Below, one piece after another: positions 1 through 7,647 of a stretch of DNA of 7,647 nt. The DNA is from a virus (Duplodnaviria; Heunggongvirae; Uroviricota; Caudoviricetes), in the IMG/VR virus record IMGVR_UViG_2721755676_000005, positions 1 to 7,647 of that record; one strand, given 5' to 3'. The notes under the pieces are model-generated. The model was not told the origin of the DNA. It saw nothing but the letters and a program-made list of their open reading frames with translations, and did no database searches. The position numbers and the translations under genes were made by a program. How positions within the stretch are numbered: position 1 is the first letter of the stretch; each line of letters begins with the position of its first letter.

Positions 1-405
1 ATGGATCAGGTCGTTGTTTTTCAAAAGATGTTTGAGCAAGTGAGAAAAGAGCAAAACTTCTCCTGGTTTTATTCAGAATTAAAACATCACCGTATTGCAC
101 ATTACATTTATTATCTGGCTACGGATAACATCAGAATTATTACTCACGATGACACGGTTTTGTTATTAAGAGGAACCAGGAACCTGTTAAAAGTTAGTAC
201 GACCAAGAACCCTGCTAAAATAAAAGAGGCCGCATTGCTTCATATTTGCGGAAAATCTACATTTCGGGAATACTGTTCAACACTAGCAGGCGCGGGCGTT
301 TTCCGGTGGGTTACTGATGTTAATCATAACAAACGCAGTTACTACGCCATTGATAATACGCTTTTATATATTGAAGATGTAGAAAATAATAAACCATTAA
401 TCTAG
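1..405 (+). CDS. ycgX: Small DUF1398-family protein, YcgX-like (134 aa)
   Basis: ATG at 1-3, uninterrupted 134-codon ORF. Length and position (upstream of iraM, near icdC/mcrA) match the ycgX locus of E. coli K-12 as I recall it. Family assignment is from memory and synteny, not a visible motif. Confidence 0.55.
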   Translation: MDQVVVFQKMFEQVRKEQNFSWFYSELKHHRIAHYIYYLATDNIRIITHDDTVLLLRGTRNLLKVSTTKNPAKIKEAALLHICGKSTFREYCSTLAGAGVFRWVTDVNHNKRSYYAIDNTLLYIEDVENNKPLI

Positions 406-612
406 CTAAAGTTGGATGCTTAAGAAATGCTTCATAATTCAGTAAGGCATTAGCATAATGGGAATAAAAGTACAGAGACTATCCCTATGGATGATAAATA
501 CTGTCCTTTTATTGCTACCCATAAATAATCACCATGCCAATACTATCAAATTGATATTTGAAATGTGATCACTTGACTTTCTATACGTTATTTTATAACG
601 GTTAATATATTT

Positions 613-663
613 ATAAAAACAACGGGTGTGCCATACGCCCGTTTCAATACTTAACGCACATGT
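613..663. repeat. Orphan copy of the ~50-bp icd-terminator-like repeat, including an imperfect hairpin (AACGGGTGT-GCCAT-ACGCCCGTT at 621-643)
   Basis: Aligns with 1474-1522 at roughly 80% identity with one indel (ATAAAAACAACGGGYGTG..ATACGCCCGTTKCAATAYT..ACATGT). The stem has one G-U-type mismatch relative to the perfect copy. No coding sequence is attached to it. Confidence 0.5.
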
Positions 664-1100
664 GTTTTGGTTTAGTCATCATCCAGTTATATGTATTTTA
701 GCCAGGAACAGGTTAAACCTTTCCTATATAACTCAAAAATTGAAACCTTATTCTCATGTCATGCTTATATTCATTATTATCGTTATATAAAAAGGCAACC
801 ATAATGTTTAGCAAATTGGCACAAAGTAGCATAAAGGCTATGTTTTAATTACAGGATGTTCAGTCATTTGAATGTATAACATTATAGCTAAACAAATCTA
901 AAACGAAGTGAATAATTTATTGTTTTCACTAAATCTCATTTTGTTTAACATCCATTGAGATTCCTTGCTTTAAATTTTGTTTTATATAAGCAATCGTTTT
1001 AATTAATTTATTTTTTGAAGGGGTAATATACTCATATGCAAAATAAAGAAATGAACATCCAAATGAACTATATTAAATACCGTGGGATAAGACATAACAA

Positions 1101-1424
1101 ATGAAGTGGATAGTAATTGACACGATAATTCAACCTTCATGCGGCATATCTTTTTCAGCCATATGGGGTAATATGAAAATGATCATCTGGTATCAATCTA
1201 CTATATTTCTCCCTCCTGGCAGTATATTTACACCGGTTAAATCTGGAATTATCCTTAAAGATAAAGAATATCCTATTACTATTTATAACATCGCACCATT
1301 CAACAAGAATTTATGGAGTCTACTCAAAAGCAGTCAAGAGTGTCCTCCAGGAGAAAGCAAAATAACAAATAAATGTTTGCATAATAGTTGCATTATAAAA
1401 ATATGCCCATATGGGCTCAAGTAA
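1101..1424 (+). CDS. iraM: Anti-adaptor protein IraM (inhibits RssB-mediated RpoS degradation), 107 aa
   Basis: ATG at 1101, 107-aa ORF. The translation (MKWIVIDT...[13 protein letters not shown]...KICPYGLK) matches my recollection of E. coli IraM almost residue for residue. Low-GC gene in an AT-rich island next to icdC, as in K-12. Confidence 0.75.
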
Positions 1425-1470
1425 AGGGTTTTATATAAATATGCTCGATATGCTATTAATAATACCTACA

Positions 1471-1503
1471 TAAATAAAACAACGGGCGTGTTATACGCCC
1501 GTT
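1471..1503 (-). terminator. Rho-independent terminator of the displaced icd 3' end
   Basis: Perfect 9-bp stem AACGGGCGT / ACGCCCGTT with a 5-nt loop at 1481-1503. On the minus strand it is followed by GTTTTATTTA (1480-1471) and sits 24 nt downstream of the icd-frame stop codon at 1527-1529. Confidence 0.6.
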
Positions 1504-1526
1504 GCAATATTAAACACATGTAGTGA

Positions 1527-1694
1527 TTACATATTCTTGATGATCGCGTCACCAAACTCTGAACATTTCAGCAGTTTAGCACCTTCCATCAGACGTTCGA
1601 AGTCATAGGTTACGGTCTTCGCGTTGATTGCGCCTTCCATACCTTTAACAATCAGGTCAGCCGCTTCAGTCCAACCCATATGGCGTAACATTAG
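1527..1694 (-). pseudogene. icdC: icdC: displaced 3'-terminal fragment (about 55 codons) of the isocitrate dehydrogenase gene, the e14-type attachment remnant
   Basis: Minus-strand translation reads (L)[54 protein letters not shown], which is the Icd C-terminus. An in-frame TAA lies immediately upstream at 1695-1697, so there is no 5' coding body. e14 is known to integrate in the 3' end of icd. Confidence 0.8.
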
Positions 1695-1749
1695 TTAGAT
1701 GACTAAATCGTAACTATTTGACATAGCAACATAATTTTACTAATTTGCA

Positions 1750-1786
1750 TATAACTCATTAGCCCTTAGCATTTCTATAACTCATT
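1750..1786. promoter_or_regulatory. Two perfect 11-bp direct repeats TATAACTCATT (1750-1760 and 1776-1786); candidate integrase arm-type binding sites just inside the prophage junction
   Basis: Exact 11-bp direct repeat, 26 bp start to start, within about 60-90 bp of the icdC/prophage junction. Lambda-family integrases bind direct-repeat arm sites flanking the core. Function is inferred only. Confidence 0.3.
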
Positions 1787-1924
1787 GATTATAAACATGT
1801 GTTTTTGAGTTTTGATAACCATTTTTAGCATAAAAATAGCAGTTAACATTTGCAGAAGTTAAGATCAGAGAAAATTTTTACCCTGTAGGGTATTACGTCT
1901 TAAATGTGACTTTAATAAATAATT

Positions 1925-2758
1925 TTATTTCTGTAATCGGTTTATATTAACGTAAAGCATCTCGATTAGTTCTTTTGCATTTTTACTATAGTGCAATTCT
2001 CTATGGCAATTCGGACAAAGGGCAACACAGTTATCTGTTGTATCAGCACCACCTGAAGACAGGGGAATTACATGATGCACTTCCAAATATGGGTTTCCAT
2101 CATTTAAATAAAACGGAGCATTTTTACCACAGTTTTCACATATACCTTTACTTTGCTGTAAAATCCAAGCTTTTACCATCGGGTCTCGGACATAAACTTT
2201 TTGTAGTCTTTCTACCTCAACTGGTTTCCTGGAGCCCTCGGGTTGACTCAACGTTTTCTTAATTAATTTACTAACCCTCATATTCAGAAGCGATTCATCA
2301 TCTGTAGGCTGTGAAAGCTCTGATAGTTCTCCACGTATTATAGACGCCCAAAAACTGTCACTATAAATACCTGGGACATTTATCAATATTCGTTTCGTTC
2401 TATTGCCGGAAGGAATTTCCTTTCTCCCCGTACGACTAAAATAAGCCTGATAACCACACATCTTCAAGCGTATATCGCGGGGGCTATTACCAATCAAAGT
2501 AAAATATTCACCAGGATGGATTTTTCTTTCATCCAAAGAATGCATATGTTTTCTGACTGATGATGACGCCAGATATACTACGACTTGGGATACACCAGAA
2601 TCAACCAACCGTTCAATGATATAATCAAGAGCGATATTGTAATCTTTGTTTCTGTCACCCGGCCCCCACGACTCAAGGATTAGACCATAAACACCATCCT
2701 CTTCACCTATCGAACACTCAGCTTTCAGTTCAATTCCATTATTATCAAAAACATGCAT
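1925..2758 (-). CDS. mcrA: McrA, HNH-family 5-methylcytosine-specific (type IV) restriction endonuclease, 277 aa
   Basis: ATG at 2756-2758 (minus strand), 277-aa ORF. The C-terminal HNH/zinc-finger motif is visible: CENCGKNAPFYLNDGNPYLEVHHVIPLSSGGADTTDNCVALCPNCHRELH. The translation matches my recollection of E. coli McrA, and the position next to pin and icdC is as in e14. Confidence 0.93.
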   Translation of the reverse strand: MHVFDNNGIELKAECSIGEEDGVYGLILESWGPGDRNKDYNIALDYIIERLVDSGVSQVVVYLASSSVRKHMHSLDERKIHPGEYFTLIGNSPRDIRLKMCGYQAYFSRTGRKEIPSGNRTKRILINVPGIYSDSFWASIIRGELSELSQPTDDESLLNMRVSKLIKKTLSQPEGSRKPVEVERLQKVYVRDPMVKAWILQQSKGICENCGKNAPFYLNDGNPYLEVHHVIPLSSGGADTTDNCVALCPNCHRELHYSKNAKELIEMLYVNINRLQK

Positions 2759-2864
2759 AATATTAATCTTTAATCAATTTTTCACGACAATACTACTTTT
2801 ATTGATAAAATTGCAACAAGTTGCTGTTGTTTTATTCTCTTTTGTACAAAAAGTGTCTTTAACT

Positions 2865-3419
2865 TTATTTATCCCCTGCAGGAAACCTCTTATACAAAGT
2901 TGACACACCAACATCATAGATAATCGCCACCTTCTGGCGAGGAACTCCTGATGCAATTAATCGTCCGGCCTGTTCCCATTGTTCTGGTGTAAGTTTGGGA
3001 CGACGTCCACCAATTCGTCCCTGTGCGCGAGCAGCTTCCAGTCCAGCTTTTGTTCTTTCAACAATCAGTTCACGCTCCATTTCAGCCAGGGCACCCATCA
3101 CATGAAAGAAAAAGCGCCCCATTGGGGTACTGGTATCAATTGAATCCGTCAGACTACGAAAGTTGATGCCTCGTTCGCGCAACTCCTCCACCAGCACGAC
3201 AAGATGCCGCATACTGCGCCCCAGCCGGTCCAGTTTCCAGACCACCAGCGTGTCACCTGCCGATAATGTCCTGAGCAGTTTTTTCAGTCCCGGCCTTTCG
3301 GACTTTGTACCGCTTATCTTGTCTTCAAAAATCAGCTCGCATCCTGCACAGTTCAGCGCATTACGTTGTAGATCTGTGTTCTGGTCATTTGTTGATACGC
3401 GTACATAGCCAATAAGCAT
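2865..3419 (-). CDS. pinE: Serine recombinase DNA invertase, Pin (Hin/Gin/Cin family), 184 aa
   Basis: Translation MLIGYVRVSTNDQNTDLQ...VVWKLDRLGRSMRHL...GINFRSLTDSIDTS.PMGRFFFHVMGALAEMERELIVERT...GGRRPKLT. with a C-terminal HTH. Catalytic Ser is in the RVSTNDQ motif. I take the ATG at 3417-3419 as the start: it is preceded by GGGGGA about 7 nt upstream, whereas the ORF-track start at 3455 adds 12 atypical residues. Confidence 0.92.
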   Translation of the reverse strand: MLIGYVRVSTNDQNTDLQRNALNCAGCELIFEDKISGTKSERPGLKKLLRTLSAGDTLVVWKLDRLGRSMRHLVVLVEELRERGINFRSLTDSIDTSTPMGRFFFHVMGALAEMERELIVERTKAGLEAARAQGRIGGRRPKLTPEQWEQAGRLIASGVPRQKVAIIYDVGVSTLYKRFPAGDK

Positions 3420-3445
3420 GGTAGATCCCCCTGACAAAAGCAGGA

Positions 3446-3967
3446 ATGATGCCATTTGCTCGTTATTTCTGCATTTTCATAAACGTTGGTTTGGGAGAAG
3501 GCTCTGCATTACCTGTTGGTGTGCCTGTTCCATGGCCTTCAGCCACACCGCCAACAGGCTGGCTGAAATGCAACGGTGCGGCATTTTCTGCTGAAGAATA
3601 CCCGGAACTGGCAAAGGCTTATCCAACAAATAAATTACCTGATTTACGCGGTGAGTTTATTCGTGGCTGGGATGACGGGCGCGGTATTGATGCAGGACGT
3701 GTTTTATTGAGCATTCAGACAGGGATGCTGGAAAAACACCGCCATATTGTTGTTGCAAATGATGGTTACGACACAAAAGATGAATGGGAACTGGCTACGA
3801 TTTTCAAAAAGACATACACACAAGGACGGGGACTTGATGCCACAAATACAGGAGGGAGTCTGATCCCATCACCGACACTTCATTCACGAGGGAGTATCGG
3901 TAATACTGGCGGGAATGAAACCCGTCCACGAAATATTGCATTTAATTTTATCGTGAGGGCTGCATAA
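3446..3967 (+). CDS. stfE: Tail-fibre variable C-terminal cassette (StfE-like), currently in the unfused (silent) orientation; true cassette coding begins at the crossover site, 3474
   Basis: Translation ...GLGEGSALPVGVPVPWPSATPPTGWLKCNGAAFSAEEYPELAKAYP...LPDLRGEFIRGW...ETRPRNIAFNFIVRAA shows the conserved hallmarks of Mu S / lambda Stf-type fibre tips (PxPWP motif, C-terminal NIAFN.IVR). The TAATG overlap couples it to the following tfa gene. Confidence 0.75.
   Translation: MMPFARYFCIFINVGLGEGSALPVGVPVPWPSATPPTGWLKCNGAAFSAEEYPELAKAYPTNKLPDLRGEFIRGWDDGRGIDAGRVLLSIQTGMLEKHRHIVVANDGYDTKDEWELATIFKKTYTQGRGLDATNTGGSLIPSPTLHSRGSIGNTGGNETRPRNIAFNFIVRAA
3474..3499. repeat. Pin crossover site, pin-proximal (26 bp): TTTTCATAAACG-TT-GGTTTGGGAGAA
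   Basis: Two 12-bp half-sites around a 2-bp core, matching the hix/gix/cix/pix pattern (TTNTCNNAAACC-NN-GGTTTNNGANAA). The inner half-site is the exact reverse complement of the inner half-site of the 5365-5390 site, and the core dinucleotide is inverted (TT versus AA). Confidence 0.7.
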
Positions 3968-4569
3968 TGGATAACGCCGTATTAAATAGCGAGCTTATTG
4001 CCACGAAGGCGGGGAATATTACCGTCTATAACTATGATGGTAAAACTCGGGAATATATTTCCACTTCAAATGAATATCTTGCCATTGGTGTCGGTATCCC
4101 TGCATATTCCTGTTTAGATGCCCCTGGCACACATAAGGCGGGTTATGCTATCTGCCGTTCGATGGATTTAAACTCATGGGAATATGTGCCAGATCATCGC
4201 GGTGAAATTGTCTATAGCACCGAAACAGGAGAATCGAAAGAAATCACAGCTCCGGGTGATTATCCTGAAAATACAACCACTATCGCCCCGTTAACGCCAT
4301 ACGATGAATGGAATGGTGAGAAATGGGTGACAGATACCGAGGCACAGCACGGCGCAGCAGTAGATGCAGCAGAAGCACAGCGCCAGTCGCTGATTGATAC
4401 TGCAATGGCCTCCATCAGTCTGATTCAACTGAAATTACAGGCCGGACGGAAGCTGACGCAGGCAGAAACAACCCGCCTTAACGCTGTGCTGGATTACATT
4501 GACGCGGTGACGGCAACAGATACCAGCACAGCGCCGGATGTCATCTGGCCTGAATTGCCGGAGGCGTAG
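3967..4569 (+). CDS. tfaE: Tail fibre assembly chaperone (TfaE-like), 200 aa
   Basis: ATG at 3967 overlapping the stop of the upstream fibre cassette. C-terminal ...DTSTAPDVIWPELPEA motif is typical of Tfa/U-type chaperones. Position immediately downstream of a fibre tip. Confidence 0.8.
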   Translation: MDNAVLNSELIATKAGNITVYNYDGKTREYISTSNEYLAIGVGIPAYSCLDAPGTHKAGYAICRSMDLNSWEYVPDHRGEIVYSTETGESKEITAPGDYPENTTTIAPLTPYDEWNGEKWVTDTEAQHGAAVDAAEAQRQSLIDTAMASISLIQLKLQAGRKLTQAETTRLNAVLDYIDAVTATDTSTAPDVIWPELPEA

Positions 4570-4984
4570 GCCATTCAATATCTGGCGCACCGGAAGTATC
4601 GATCAGCTCCAGTGCGTCCAGATAATCCAGCCACAAATTATATTGCGCCAGTTCCTCACCTTTCAGACGACCAATAGCGGCTTTACCAGGCCATTGCTTA
4701 CCGTTCATGTATTCGTTAGCCTGGTTAATTAGTAGCTGTCTTTCTGATTCAGTAATTTCAATAAGCTCTTCATGAGTAGGTGGAGGAATATCTGCCCACG
4801 CAGGTAGTCCATCCTCTCCGGCAATACGGACTTTTCCTTGTGGCGGTTCAGCCATAAACTCACTGACAATATTTTGATTCACCTCCTTAGCATCTGATAA
4901 ATCCCATCCTACTGATTTATATTTATCAATCATATCCACAGGGAAAAAAGCATTATGCCTGGCACTATAAACATATTCGTTCAT
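4541..4984 (-). CDS. tfaP: Tail fibre assembly chaperone (TfaP-like), about 147 aa from the ATG at 4982-4984
   Basis: Minus-strand ORF ending ...DTSGAPDIEWPTPPAIQAR, parallel to the TfaE C-terminus. The ORF-track start at 4993 is a GTG; the ATG three codons in has a good AGGGTG Shine-Dalgarno 6 nt upstream. Lies immediately downstream of the minus-strand fibre gene. Confidence 0.75.
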   Translation of the reverse strand: MNEYVYSARHNAFFPVDMIDKYKSVGWDLSDAKEVNQNIVSEFMAEPPQGKVRIAGEDGLPAWADIPPPTHEELIEITESERQLLINQANEYMNGKQWPGKAAIGRLKGEELAQYNLWLDYLDALELIDTSGAPDIEWPTPPAIQAR

Positions 4985-5004
4985 ATAAATCACCCTGAAT
5001 AAAA

Positions 5005-5661
5005 TTACTCACCAACAGCCCACCAACTGTAATGCATAGATACCGTGTCACTGGTTGATGACGTTCTGTAAGCAGAATTAAAGCCGGTTAACGTAGGGCC
5101 TTCTGCAGTCATCACGAACCCTCGCCCAGCGCCTAAAGGCGCACCGCCATCACCAGAATGGGTAAGAATGGCGCAGTCCGCTTTTTTAGGGAAAGGGATA
5201 GGAAATGTAATCCTCATTGTTTGCGTCGATAATTTCGGCATAGCCTCGCCTCGACCATATTGCAGAATTTTACCGTTGGGTAATTTCATCCATCCATCAC
5301 CACTGGCAAAAGAGGCCATGTCCGGTATCTGATTTTCCCCTGTCCCTACATCCCGTTTTGCCGCTTCTCCCAAACCAAGGTTTTCGAGAGCCGTTTTCAC
5401 CGTGCCATCCGATTTGATATCACCAAACGGATTCTTGCGGCTTAACAGCAGAGCACGAAGCGCGGTAAGCAACTGGTCGTTTCGCCCCTTCTCCAGGCTG
5501 GCACCGGATGCCTCCACCACGCTGCAAAGCTCCTCCTGCAACATATCAAAGTAGTCATCATCGAGATCGGTGGCAGGTGTGCCAGTCTGGGGGTTACCAC
5601 GGGTACCCACCCGCCTGGTGTGCAACCTTCGCCAGGCACCGGGAGGCACCCGGCACCACAA
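5005..5661 (-). CDS. stfP: 5'-truncated side tail fibre gene (StfP-like): short constant-region stub fused in frame across the crossover site to the second variable C-terminus
   Basis: Translation contains ...[35 protein letters not shown] (resembles the end of the constant region of lambda Stf / P2 H fibres) followed by a distinct variable tip. The ORF-track start at 5661 is a TTG with an in-frame stop just upstream, and the first ~35 residues are not fibre-like, so the real N-terminus is missing or uncertain. Confidence 0.65.
5365..5390. repeat. Pin crossover site, pin-distal (26 bp): TTCTCCCAAACC-AA-GGTTTTCGAGAG
   Basis: Inverted partner of the 3474-3499 site, sharing 15 bp of identity (TTGGTTTGGGAGAAG on the complementary strand) through the core and inner half-site. 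It encodes ...ALENLGLGE... in the fibre frame. Confidence 0.7.
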
Positions 5662-5682
5662 CTTTATGCTGTGTGTAGTCTT

Positions 5683-5729
5683 GGCGGTACCAGCTTGTAC
5701 CCTTGCTTCCGGCTGGTACCGCCCTTTTT
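5683..5729 (+). terminator. GC-rich hairpin (12-bp perfect stem GGCGGTACCAGC / GCTGGTACCGCC, 17-nt loop) followed by CTTTTT; candidate plus-strand intrinsic terminator
   Basis: Perfect 12-bp inverted repeat at 5683-5694 and 5712-5723 with a T5 run at 5725-5729. No plus-strand gene is obviously upstream, so the role is unclear (may be a relic, or block read-through into xis). Confidence 0.3.
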
Positions 5730-5818
5730 ACAAAACAGAGAAGAGTATCCCCGGATGACGGGGTCATAACCCGATCCATCCTGATAATTGTGGCCACAGG
5801 TGCTCTTCTCTGTTTTGT
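5730..5818. repeat. Perfect 16-bp inverted repeat pair (ACAAAACAGAGAAGAG at 5730-5745 and CTCTTCTCTGTTTTGT at 5803-5818) flanking a 57-bp spacer that contains a CCCCG/CGGGG mini-hairpin
   Basis: Read directly from the sequence. Lies between the truncated fibre stub and xis. Function unknown. Confidence 0.5.
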
Positions 5819-5891
5819 GGAGAAACTAACCGACCTTGCAGGGTCGATATGCAGAGACTGAACAGTTAGTGAAGTAACAAGGTGATCGCAT

Positions 5892-6137
5892 ATGCTTCAA
5901 ATGTTAACTCTTGAAGAATGGGCCTCTGAAAAATACAGAAGTAATCCTCCAAGTGTGTCCACATTGCGTCGTTATGCTAAGCAGAATTTATTTTGCCCAC
6001 CGGCCATGAAACAAGGTCGGTTATGGCGAGTGCGTGAGGACGCTGAGTTAGTTGGGGAGTTGGTAACACCAGTAATCAAGAAAAATGACTCATTACTTTT
6101 GCAACGGATCTTGAGTGATGGCAGCCAGACCGCGTAA
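5892..6137 (+). CDS. xisE: Excisionase (XisE-like), 81 aa
   Basis: ATG at 5892 with an AAGGTG Shine-Dalgarno 7 nt upstream. Small basic protein immediately upstream of the integrase and overlapping it by about 20 nt, as lambda xis/int do. Sequence agrees with my recollection of e14 XisE. Confidence 0.85.
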   Translation: MLQMLTLEEWASEKYRSNPPSVSTLRRYAKQNLFCPPAMKQGRLWRVREDAELVGELVTPVIKKNDSLLLQRILSDGSQTA

Positions 6138-7245
6138 GAATAATGTTTCAGTACCTAACTTATATCCGCTTTATAGTAGGAAGGTAAATAAAGTCTATTG
6201 GCGGTATAAGCATCCAGTAACAGGGAAATTTCATGCGTTGGGAACTAACGAAGCTGAAGCCATCGCTATTGCCACTGAAGCCAATACACGCCTGGCTGAA
6301 CAAAGAACCCGACAGATTCTGGCTATCAGTGACAGGATCGCAACCTGCAAAGGAAAAGCGATCACAACGTCAACCTGGTTAGATCGCTATCAAGCGATCC
6401 AGGATGATAGGCTCAAAAGTGGTGATATAAGACTCAATACCTATAAGCAAAAAGCCAAACCAGTATCCTTGCTCAGAGAACGAGCAGGAATGAAGTTGAT
6501 CTCATCCGTTGATGTCAGAGATATAGCACAATTGCTTGATGAGTATATTACAGCTGGACAGCCTAGAATGGCCCAAGTCGTAAGGTCTGTATTAATCGAT
6601 GTGTTTAAGGAAGCACAGCATTATGGCGAAGTTCCACCAGGGTATAACCCTGCTCTTGCGACGAAGCAACCCAGAAGGAAAATCACCCGTCAACGCCTCA
6701 GCCTGGAAGAATGGCAAAAAATTTTTGATATCGCAGACTCCACTCATCGTTACATGGGAAATGCCATGCTGTTAGCGCTGGTTACTGGCCAACGTTTGGG
6801 AGATATATCCAAAATGAAATTCAGCGATATCTGGGATGATCATCTGCATATCGAACAGGAAAAAACCGGCAGCAAAATAGCCATTCCTCTTTCTCTTCGT
6901 TTGAATGTAATCAACTGGAGCCTGCGCGATGTTGTAGCTCGCTGCCGTGACTATGTAGATAGTCCATACTTAGTACATTTTTTCAGATCAACTTCACAGG
7001 CAGAACGTGGGGCACAAGTAAAAGCTAATACTCTGACTATGAATTTTAGCAAAGCAAGGGATCTGGCTGAAATTGATTGGGGTGAAGGAACCCCAGCAAC
7101 CTTTCATGAGCAACGTTCATTGTCAGAAAGGCTATACAAAGAACAGGGAATAGATACTCAGAAATTGCTGGGACATAAAACCCAGCAACAAACTGATCGT
7201 TATAACGATCTCCGCGGAAAAAATTGGGTAACTTTAACAATATGA
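6118..7245 (+). CDS. intE: Lambda-family tyrosine integrase (IntE-like), about 375 aa
   Basis: Tyrosine-recombinase catalytic signature is visible: R in ...LVTGQRLGD..., H-x-x-R in FHEQRSLSERLY, then LLGHK and the catalytic Tyr in TDRYND. I take the ATG at 6118 as the start (the ORF-track start at 6115 is GTG). Confidence 0.9.
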   Translation: MAARPRKNNVSVPNLYPLYSRKVNKVYWRYKHPVTGKFHALGTNEAEAIAIATEANTRLAEQRTRQILAISDRIATCKGKAITTSTWLDRYQAIQDDRLKSGDIRLNTYKQKAKPVSLLRERAGMKLISSVDVRDIAQLLDEYITAGQPRMAQVVRSVLIDVFKEAQHYGEVPPGYNPALATKQPRRKITRQRLSLEEWQKIFDIADSTHRYMGNAMLLALVTGQRLGDISKMKFSDIWDDHLHIEQEKTGSKIAIPLSLRLNVINWSLRDVVARCRDYVDSPYLVHFFRSTSQAERGAQVKANTLTMNFSKARDLAEIDWGEGTPATFHEQRSLSERLYKEQGIDTQKLLGHKTQQQTDRYNDLRGKNWVTLTI

Positions 7246-7356
7246 ATATTTACATGTATTAGTCGCGACTTGATCTGACACTGAGCCTTGAAAGGTTGAG
7301 AGTTACCGGTTTTGATATGGGTGTCGAATCCTTATACAAAACACGAGGTAACTCTC

Positions 7357-7647
7357 ATGCTTCATACTACCAATCCCGTTATCAAACACAAAACCGGTTT
7401 GCTCAATCTGGCTGAAGAACTCAGCAACGTATCAAAAGCCTGTAAAATCATGGGCGTTTCGCGTGATACGTTTTATCGTTACCGCGAACTGGTCGATGAA
7501 GGTGGTGTGGATGCGCTGATTAATCGTAGTCGCCGCGCTCCTAACCTTAAGAACCGTACCGATGAGGCAACTGAACAGGCTGTTGTTGATTACGCCGTCG
7601 CTTTCCCGGCACACAGTCAGCACCGGACGCAGCAACGAGCTGCGTAA
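7357..7647 (+). CDS. IS-element transposase, N-terminal HTH region (resembles IS481-like DDE transposases); partial or interrupted at the window edge
   Basis: ATG at 7357 with GAGGT 7 nt upstream (the ORF-track start at 7312 is TTG). Translation ...SKACKIMGVSRDTFYRYRELVDEGGVDALINRSRRAPNLK... is a typical transposase N-terminal HTH followed by the RSRRP motif. Family assignment is from memory only. An in-frame TAA occupies the last three bases of the window. Confidence 0.55.
   Translation: MLHTTNPVIKHKTGLLNLAEELSNVSKACKIMGVSRDTFYRYRELVDEGGVDALINRSRRAPNLKNRTDEATEQAVVDYAVAFPAHSQHRTQQRAA

Follow-up and report, generated by a model that had tools for sequence, protein, structure and literature searches.

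The window analysed here is the whole stretch of 7,647 nucleotides (IMG/VR record IMGVR_UViG_2721755676_000005), and in it an e14-like defective prophage adjoins the E. coli ycgX-iraM-icd' region. Its first 5,049 bases share 99.9% identity with strain USDA-ARS-USMARC-51408, and K-12 has the same gene order over window positions 1-1700, at about 96% identity. The features are listed below, with the strand where one was assigned.

1-405, plus strand: ycgX (DUF1398), from a Pfam DUF1398 match (E 1e-47) and the RefSeq annotation of near-identical genomes; the outer neighbour of the 860-bp unit
458-568, plus strand: ymgL, a small ORF of 36 aa, from RefSeq annotation transferred from L084/L172; its stop lies 45 nt before copy A
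553-614: left flank of copy A, common to all iraM-less single-copy alleles; resembles the attP arm-type repeat region of the e14 family
615-663, minus strand: copy A, a relic icd terminator, with stem 621-629/635-643 and loop 630-634, then a spacer to CACATGT; T627 weakens the stem
664-1100, plus strand: AT-rich iraM upstream region (25-32% G+C), the inner left part of the 860-bp unit
804-848, plus strand: ymgK sORF, inside the iraM upstream region
1101-1424, plus strand: iraM (anti-adaptor of RssB), convergent with icd; 98% identity to annotated IraM
1425-1474: spacer from the iraM stop codon to copy B; its similarity to arm sites is not significant in shuffle tests
1475-1521, minus strand: copy B, the icd intrinsic terminator, with stem 1480-1489/1495-1504, loop 1490-1494 and a U-tract on the minus strand
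1527-1691, minus strand: displaced icd 3' fragment (icdC-like), 54 codons, stop codon at 1527-1529; Pfam Iso_dh, a pseudogene in the annotation
1692-7647: e14-like defective prophage, from Pfam, the L084 annotation and alignment to L084
1925-2758: mcrA, within the e14-like prophage
2865-3455: pin, within the e14-like prophage
between pin and xis: tail-fibre segment of the e14-like prophage
5892-6137: xis, within the e14-like prophage
6115-7245: int, within the e14-like prophage; the start of an IS481-family gene lies beyond it

The small protein YmgL has been detected experimentally (PMC6001520). The 860-bp unit has 25-34% G+C, and the interval between copies A and B holds only ymgK and iraM, with no integrase or excisionase; iraM occupies the place where phage 21 and the O157 prophage have int. 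Copy B faces the icd fragment and iraM alike.

The dominant direct repeat of the whole window pairs 616-658 with 1476-1518 (43 nt ungapped, 84% identical, spacing 860), and the homology extends to 615-663 versus 1475-1521 if one 1-nt and one 2-nt gap are allowed, with CACATGT as the common end. The original prediction, that two direct repeats of about 50 bp flank iraM together with its AT-rich upstream region, is therefore borne out. When the B unit was aligned with the rest of the window by the Smith-Waterman method, the score was 57, compared with 21.3 +/- 2.4 (maximum 34) for dinucleotide shuffles, none of which reached 57 (0/300). The similarity between A and B runs 20 nt past the hairpin, and it ends 5 nt before the position where a stop codon is expected.

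Copy B occupies the stretch from 5 to 50 nt past the stop codon that closes the icd fragment. On the minus strand a consensus scan calls it an intrinsic terminator, with a stem of 11 bp that includes seven G-C pairs, a loop of 5 nt and the tail TTTATTTATG; the folding energy is -26.2 kcal/mol (z -5.4). The phage 21 annotation labels the identical sequence 'terminator'. The identification of this repeat as the terminator just downstream of the displaced icd 3' end, made earlier from the letters alone, agrees with both the minus-strand call and the fold. An orthologous hairpin (AAAACGGG-N-CCCGTT followed by a U-tract) is found about 20 nt after icd in Klebsiella, Dryocola, Pantoea, Arsenophonus, Salmonella and five Citrobacter species. 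In an alignment of 20 terminator copies from 10 genera, 94.3% of cells are paired, 21 cells are double-change cells and four pairs have double changes; the pairing/covariation score was reached by none of 500 shuffles (slid controls, 34-53%). Going by this comparative evidence, copy B is the conserved intrinsic terminator of icd, and it is predicted to terminate icd today. A match of copy B to the Rfam family tpke11 is below threshold (26.4 bits versus a gathering score of 43) and was set aside as generic resemblance to a terminator.

Copy A is a decayed counterpart. A single C-to-T change at 627 gives a G.U pair on the plus strand (-17.6 kcal/mol), and on the icd-sense strand it gives a C.A mismatch, with which the copy folds at -11.4 kcal/mol, no better than shuffles (z +0.2). 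The T-tract is retained, and the terminator scan calls copy A on neither strand. The window type, the K-12 type and L129 each break the stem of copy A differently, by uncompensated mismatches, while the stem is perfect in every icd-adjacent copy; only three core stem pairs are broken among the 20 terminator copies, two of them in copy A and the third in Arsenophonus. Four haplotypes (L109, L111, L123 and L132) have a perfect copy A stem, and from this comparison the perfect stem must presumably be the ancestral state of copy A. The change had first been described as a compensating, G-U-type one; the G.U pair is there on the plus strand, but on the icd-sense strand the same change is a mismatch, so what it records is decay and not compensation.

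All A copies differ from every icd-adjacent copy by the same marks, namely loop GCCAT instead of GTTAT, AATACTT instead of AATATTT, and an extra CG before CACATG (copy A of strain G12 has TG in place of the extra CG). Since these A-only marks are found in all A copies, the split between A and B appears to be about as old as the deepest E. coli haplotypes of the locus, which differ by at most 8% in the iraM upstream region. In some alleles the hairpin loop is flipped (GTTAT/ATAAC, ATAAT/ATTAT).

We then looked at how the repeat and iraM are distributed. In 5,426 complete E. coli genomes, an 80-nt copy A probe hits a median of two and a maximum of four places per genome, none of them away from the icd locus, and a scan of IMG/VR for the hairpin pattern gave 49 loci, all 49 of which lie beside the icd 3' end or at the copy-A position. 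The low copy number and the exclusive location at icd rule out a dispersed REP/BIME-like element, which had been named at the outset as something the 613-663 copy might turn out to be. About 72% of the 5,426 genomes carry iraM with both copies; the 664-1100 region is found in a single place in 3,932 of the 5,426 and nowhere else, and the full ycgX-iraM-icd arrangement is found in 3,841 genomes. A probe spanning the junction from the ycgX flank through one terminator into the icd 3' end is matched over its full length in at least 1,037 genomes, and the single-copy iraM-less genomes include the type strain, Nissle 1917, ATCC 25922 and ST131; in O157:H7 the whole ycgX side is absent. The other outcome that would have told against the original prediction, iraM-less genomes with both repeats, was looked for too, and those genomes carry one copy.

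The iraM-less alleles lack exactly 860 bp, keep one repeat copy, and have the same ycgX-side flank. In HH45 and Z1323CEC0015 the ycgX flank is identical to that of the iraM+ window at 612 of 612 positions: HH45 retains a window-type A copy with its private T, joined to icd at CACATGT, and Z1323CEC0015 retains a window-type B copy with its two private changes. HH97 represents another deletion, with an A-type copy joined to icd exactly at CACATGT and a flank haplotype next to the K-12-type clade. RIVM_C037166 and XJ6.1 have the flank haplotype of the iraM+ strain EE72d, and RIVM_C037166 also has the same IS200C insertion as that strain. The deletions in L168 and L174 have their crossover at the left end of the repeat. 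Judged from these flanks and hybrid copies, at least three to four of the iraM-less alleles are independent, recent and precise deletions mediated by the repeats. Because crossovers are found at either end of the repeat, the loss appears to be driven by homology rather than by a site-specific system; site-specific excision at CACATGT, which was considered, is weakened by the deletions that cross over at the left end.

Short direct repeats are known to delete precisely by RecA-dependent or slipped-strand mechanisms, and the iraM deletions resemble such events in the exact loss of 860 bp, in the one hybrid repeat left behind, and in crossovers that fall in different identical stretches. The substrate of 48 bp at about 85% identity is short for RecA; otherwise nothing about it is unusual. 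The large iraM-less group of Nissle/B2 type forms its own clade of flank haplotypes. Four ycgX sites are informative, and at three of them this group has the derived state in common with iraM+ clades, the outgroup state being retained by other iraM+ haplotypes. These few sites hint that the B2-type absence may be an old loss too, nested among iraM+ haplotypes. A comparison of strains with and without iraM had been proposed as the check, on the expectation that strains lacking iraM have a single copy of the repeat. Single copies were indeed found, but they do not discriminate, as several of them are secondary deletions between the repeats; since some are recent repeat-mediated deletions, a single copy in an iraM-less genome is no proof of an empty target site.

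Where IS200C is present, it is a separate and later insertion at the U-tract edge of the hairpin; this element appears to target that edge independently. An IS200/IS605-type element with hairpin ends was considered as the carrier of iraM and rejected, given that iraM-less sites keep one hairpin and that IS200C is separate.

Outgroups were taken from Citrobacter, Salmonella, K. oxytoca, Dryocola and Pantoea (E. albertii, E. fergusonii and the cryptic clades were left out). One Citrobacter sp. has a ycgX orthologue, one terminator and icd, with no iraM there; C. amalonaticus has bluF-bluR, e14-type arms, one terminator and icd, again with no iraM there, and its iraM homologue (50% identity) is located elsewhere. 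The gene content beyond the terminator is different in every species examined. In C. koseri the icd terminator of the species is present three times in direct orientation (E 7e-7 and 3e-6). The stem changes in these copies are compensatory, and the copies bracket two cassettes (a lipid-A acyltransferase and an 85-aa ORF). Its two extra copies have no icd coding sequence. The distance from the repeat end to the stop codon is 5 nt in E. coli and about 11 and 20 nt in C. koseri.

It has been stated that iraM lies on e14 (PMC4045071). In strain 97-3250 and many others iraM is found beside an intact icd with no prophage, and in the MG1655 annotation e14 ends at 1,211,412, before icdC and iraM; for these two reasons iraM lies outside e14, and the published statement (PMC4045071) is not accurate.

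Relatives of iraM are found in prophages. In lambdoid/Stx2 prophages, IraM homologues with 58-72% identity are encoded by morons that sit between Q, the antiterminator gene, and the lysis genes and are read against the direction of late transcription. DUF1398 (ycgX-like) genes are found between the lysis genes and terminase of lambdoid prophages in the same relative orientation. A prophage that integrates in the manner of phage 21, so that int is read towards icd, would be expected to place iraM and ycgX in the orientation that they have relative to icd. The same family of IraM/IraL (PmrD-like, PF11183) morons includes IraL of CFT073 (PMC4045071), and its members are, like iraM, AT-rich, independently transcribed single genes. 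By this homology iraM belongs to the moron family of lambdoid prophages; what sets it apart is its chromosomal location with no phage genes left around it. Nucleotide homology to iraM-bearing phages is confined to the iraM coding sequence, and no donor of the 664-1100 region was found in phages, in plasmids or elsewhere in E. coli (plasmid records matching the whole region are Mb-sized or carry icd, and were taken as chromosomal).

The icd 3' end is a site of phage integration. The attP of phage 21 and e14 brings a replacement icd 3' end and terminator (cited to Hill et al. 1989 and Wang et al. 1997), and identity blocks at icd reach about 250 bp (PMC10111431). Phages and prophages of the phage 21 type have window positions 1474-1693 in common with the chromosome, with arm sites and int adjacent, and the e14-borne module beside the intact icd (L084:30822-31043) shares 92% identity with 1471-1691; counting this module, the closest genome has three terminator copies in one strain. 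Copy B and the icd fragment (1471-1691) make up the 221-bp repeat of the younger, e14-like layer. The left edge of the phage-borne block (1471-1474) is also the left edge of the A/B repeat.

In many genera the icd terminator has arm-like repeats of e14 or phage 21 type beside it. The left flank of A can be aligned, in register, with the arm-type repeats (TTTTGATAA repeats ... CCGTTAGC) of e14-type, Salmonella and C. amalonaticus modules. In shuffle tests of this flank, the similarity was matched in 0/3000 shuffles for L109, 7/3000 for L132 and 12-17/3000 for Nissle, which makes it significant in these three, but in the haplotype of the window itself it is not significant. In iraM-less strains the stretch left of the single copy is the one also found left of copy A. 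By shuffle test the left flank of copy B has no significant similarity to arm sites, and no icd coding remnant was found to the right of copy A by sequence comparison.

The iraM locus resembles a phage 21/e14 module in several respects: the locus, the terminator and the left homology boundary are the same, direct repeats surround foreign DNA, and the resident module is displaced outward, as icdC and copy B are beside e14 here. It differs in that the iraM repeat corresponds to only the terminator-distal 50 bp of the block of about 220 bp, without the icd coding part or the crossover core. Decayed islands at tRNA-type integration hotspots are bounded by direct repeats of the 3' end of the target, and the iraM unit is like such islands and islets in having a low-G+C gene with its own promoter, direct repeats of a 3' end, presence or absence among strains, and tandem layers; the differences are that the target of iraM is the terminator of a protein gene and that the repeat is a truncated part of the identity block.

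The reading that we prefer, with about even confidence, is that element after element integrated at the icd 3' end and the layers then decayed, with the A/B pair as the scar at a boundary. Elements of the phage 21/e14 family would bring their own arm sites, terminator and icd 3' end to icd, and each incoming element would displace the resident module away from icd and renew the terminator beside it. The iraM layer would be an old one, derived from a lambdoid element with an iraM-type moron, and deletions would have trimmed it to the promoter region and iraM, with the icd fragment and the integrase lost and the terminator kept. The e14-like element would be the next and youngest layer, its 221-bp repeat still whole. 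The displaced copy A would then drift, and copies A and B would now serve as a short homology that recurrently deletes iraM, leaving one terminator. We infer, in this proposal, the entry of iraM by integration, the element or enzyme responsible and the trimming deletions. As to origin, the original prediction had offered two options, a site-specific insertion that duplicated its target or successive integrations at the icd 3' end. The results are partly in its favour: they suit an insertion of foreign DNA at this site, and of the two options the successive integrations fit better than a target-site duplication does. The target-site duplication of a transposon or IS (2-14 bp) was rejected, as the repeat is 48 bp and there are no terminal inverted repeats and no transposase in 664-1474. 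Layered integration is weakest in accounting for the edges of the iraM segment: on both sides they fall at edges of the terminator block, where random trimming would not be expected to stop so precisely. Deletional bias together with past selection on the hairpin could give such sharp edges; edges confined to the terminator are predicted directly by a site-specific insertion or by template switching.

A site-specific insertion targeted to the terminator is possible, and we regard it as rather unlikely. Here a small element whose attP block comprised only the icd 3'UTR/terminator would have crossed over in the spacer between stop codon and hairpin, near CACATGT, so that A and B would be attL/attR-like, and its integrase would have been lost later by internal deletion. 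This would explain why the ends of the segment are exactly the ends of the block of about 50 bp with no icd coding sequence duplicated, why the two extra C. koseri copies are alike in this, and why HH45 and HH97 join A to icd exactly at CACATGT. Yet all elements documented or seen at this locus cross over inside icd and duplicate about 220 bp (PMC10111431), and there is no integrase or arm site in 664-1474. The left-end crossovers in L168 and L174 indicate that present-day recombination is driven by homology, and the unequal distance from the repeat end to the stop codon in E. coli and C. koseri likewise speaks against a fixed crossover site.

A broader idea, which we consider doubtful, is that the icd terminator is a recurrent capture site distinct from the crossover core within icd, where single-gene cassettes are stacked, each with a fresh terminator and no icd coding sequence, by something other than phage 21/e14 integration. 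E. coli iraM and the two C. koseri cassettes with their three terminator copies would be instances, and IS200C would be an independent case of targeting at this hairpin. The mechanism could be an unrecognised recombinase with its core in the 3'UTR or template switching driven by the hairpin.

Template switching as the origin of the iraM segment itself seems improbable to us. A replication fork stalled at the terminator hairpin would have switched to prophage DNA carrying iraM and returned at a point upstream of the hairpin, so inserting the segment and doubling the hairpin region with no recombinase involved. At the centre of the duplication is a perfect palindrome of high stability (-26 kcal/mol), the flipped hairpin loops of some alleles indicate intrastrand switching at the hairpin, and the repeat edges lie at no fixed distance from the stop codon across species, all of which would suit such an event. 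Against it, no junction microhomologies can be identified without the donor sequence, the case is purely inferential, and template switches of this kind are far less frequent than the integration of phages at an established hotspot.

Still less probable is that copy A has been retained for a function, as a terminator of ycgX-ymgL or as an insulator of the H-NS/PhoP-controlled iraM promoter. Its position 45 nt after ymgL, the plus-strand fold through the G.U pair (-17.6 kcal/mol) and the perfect stem of its putative ancestor are compatible with such a role, but no plus-strand U-tract follows the hairpin, the scan calls neither strand, the stem defects differ between the window type, the K-12 type and L129, and two of the three broken core pairs among the 20 compared copies belong to copy A. 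A function would also leave the origin of the duplication unexplained. Chance similarity or a dispersed REP/BIME-like palindrome can practically be dismissed: terminator hairpins of the design AAAACGGG...CCCGTT are common, but the score of 57 stands against a shuffle maximum of 34, the similarity continues 20 nt past the hairpin, and the sequence is found at icd only, in at most four places per genome.

The original prediction was thus right in its observation and broadly on course in how it read it. The locus adds a well-documented example of a known structure, together with a correction to the literature, and is no new kind of system. With layered integration as the preferred reading, it is a clean and datable case of hotspot layering in which relic arm sites and terminator, iraM and e14 lie side by side, and where a functional terminator is always renewed beside icd while the displaced copies decay. 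If the terminator-only boundaries did come from a dedicated mechanism, this would be a new way of acquiring single genes. For E. coli itself, IraM controls the stability of RpoS under Mg2+ limitation, and iraM is a discrete 860-bp unit of presence or absence, missing from lineages such as B2/ST131/Nissle; its precise and repeated loss through the terminator copies would explain differences between strains in their RpoS circuitry.

According to a published statement, iraM is carried by prophage e14 (PMC4045071). Our comparison conflicts with this placement, as iraM (1101-1424 in the window) lies outside the boundary of the e14-like element, which extends from 1692 onward, and iraM adjoins an intact icd gene in strains without any prophage there; the loci compared with the window are L172 and L173. 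IraM-family genes are found as prophage morons sited between Q and nanS-p/holin, and some of them (L093-L096) directly adjoin stx2AB; the loci compared are L086-L096 and L161-L163 (the latter at about 14,500-16,440). In an E. coli prophage (L089/L090) and also, past purB, in the chromosome of C. amalonaticus, lpxR follows an iraM-like gene.

The arrangement of iraM between two copies of the icd terminator (copy A, 615-663, and copy B, 1475-1521) has a counterpart in Citrobacter koseri, in which three direct terminator copies with compensatory stem changes among them bound two cassettes downstream of icd, one for a lipid-A acyltransferase and the other an 85-aa ORF; the architecture of these cassettes is the same as that of E. 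coli iraM. The terminator copies and other features are as follows.

C. koseri icd terminator, three direct copies: L155, 2014-2044, 2608-2643 and 4528-4563 (L156 likewise)
IS200C insertions and IS200 tnpA remnant: L176 (strain G12), about 830-1540 and 2400-3110; L175 and L174, about 905-1628; L153, about 5600-6165
Terminator loop ATAAC: L170, 759; L174, 1629; L175, 2499
Terminator loop ATAAT: L084 (the genome nearest to the window), 30829; opposite form ATTAT in L123 copy B
Short arm-type repeats: L008, L009, L010 and L161-L165, about 100 nt past the icd stop codon
20-nt inverted repeat: window 3481-3500 and 5364-5383, 95% complementary, 1,863 nt apart

IS200C is inserted exactly where the icd-terminator hairpin ends on its outer, U-tract side, with the junction ...TTCTGTGCAC|AAAAACAACGGG. 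It adjoins copy A in EE72d (an iraM-positive strain), the sole terminator copy in RIVM_C037166 (iraM-less), and copies A and B alike in strain G12, and in a Citrobacter sp. an IS200 tnpA remnant terminates at the equivalent position beside the icd terminator. These insertions suggest that IS200 elements prefer this hairpin edge as a target. The terminator is a perfect palindrome whose loop is found both ways round, depending on the strain (GTTAT vs ATAAC; ATAAT vs ATTAT), a pattern that looks like flipping of the hairpin through intrastrand switching. A sub-threshold match to the Rfam sRNA family tpke11 on copy B (1452-1522, minus strand; 26.4 bits vs a gathering score of 43, E 0.0075) is probably just a generic terminator-hairpin resemblance.

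Within the e14-like element, the 20-nt inverted repeat adjoins the pin recombinase gene (2865-3455) and encloses the tail-fibre and tail-fibre-assembly ORFs; its two arms are presumably the crossover sites of an invertible tail-fibre segment. A 551-nt stretch of the element (5050-5600) is unaligned to L084, which has 1,989 nt there; outside this stretch, the window matches this closest genome at 99.9% identity.

In distant Enterobacterales (Arsenophonus, Symbiopectobacterium and C. farmeri), short tandem arm-type repeats (integrase-binding-type repeats, with the motifs TTTTGGGGAA, TTTTGATAA or ATTTTACTG) directly adjoin the icd terminator, including at icd loci where the repeats had no visible integrase gene beside them. 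The presence of such repeats in distant genera suggests that relics of icd-targeting phages are very widespread.
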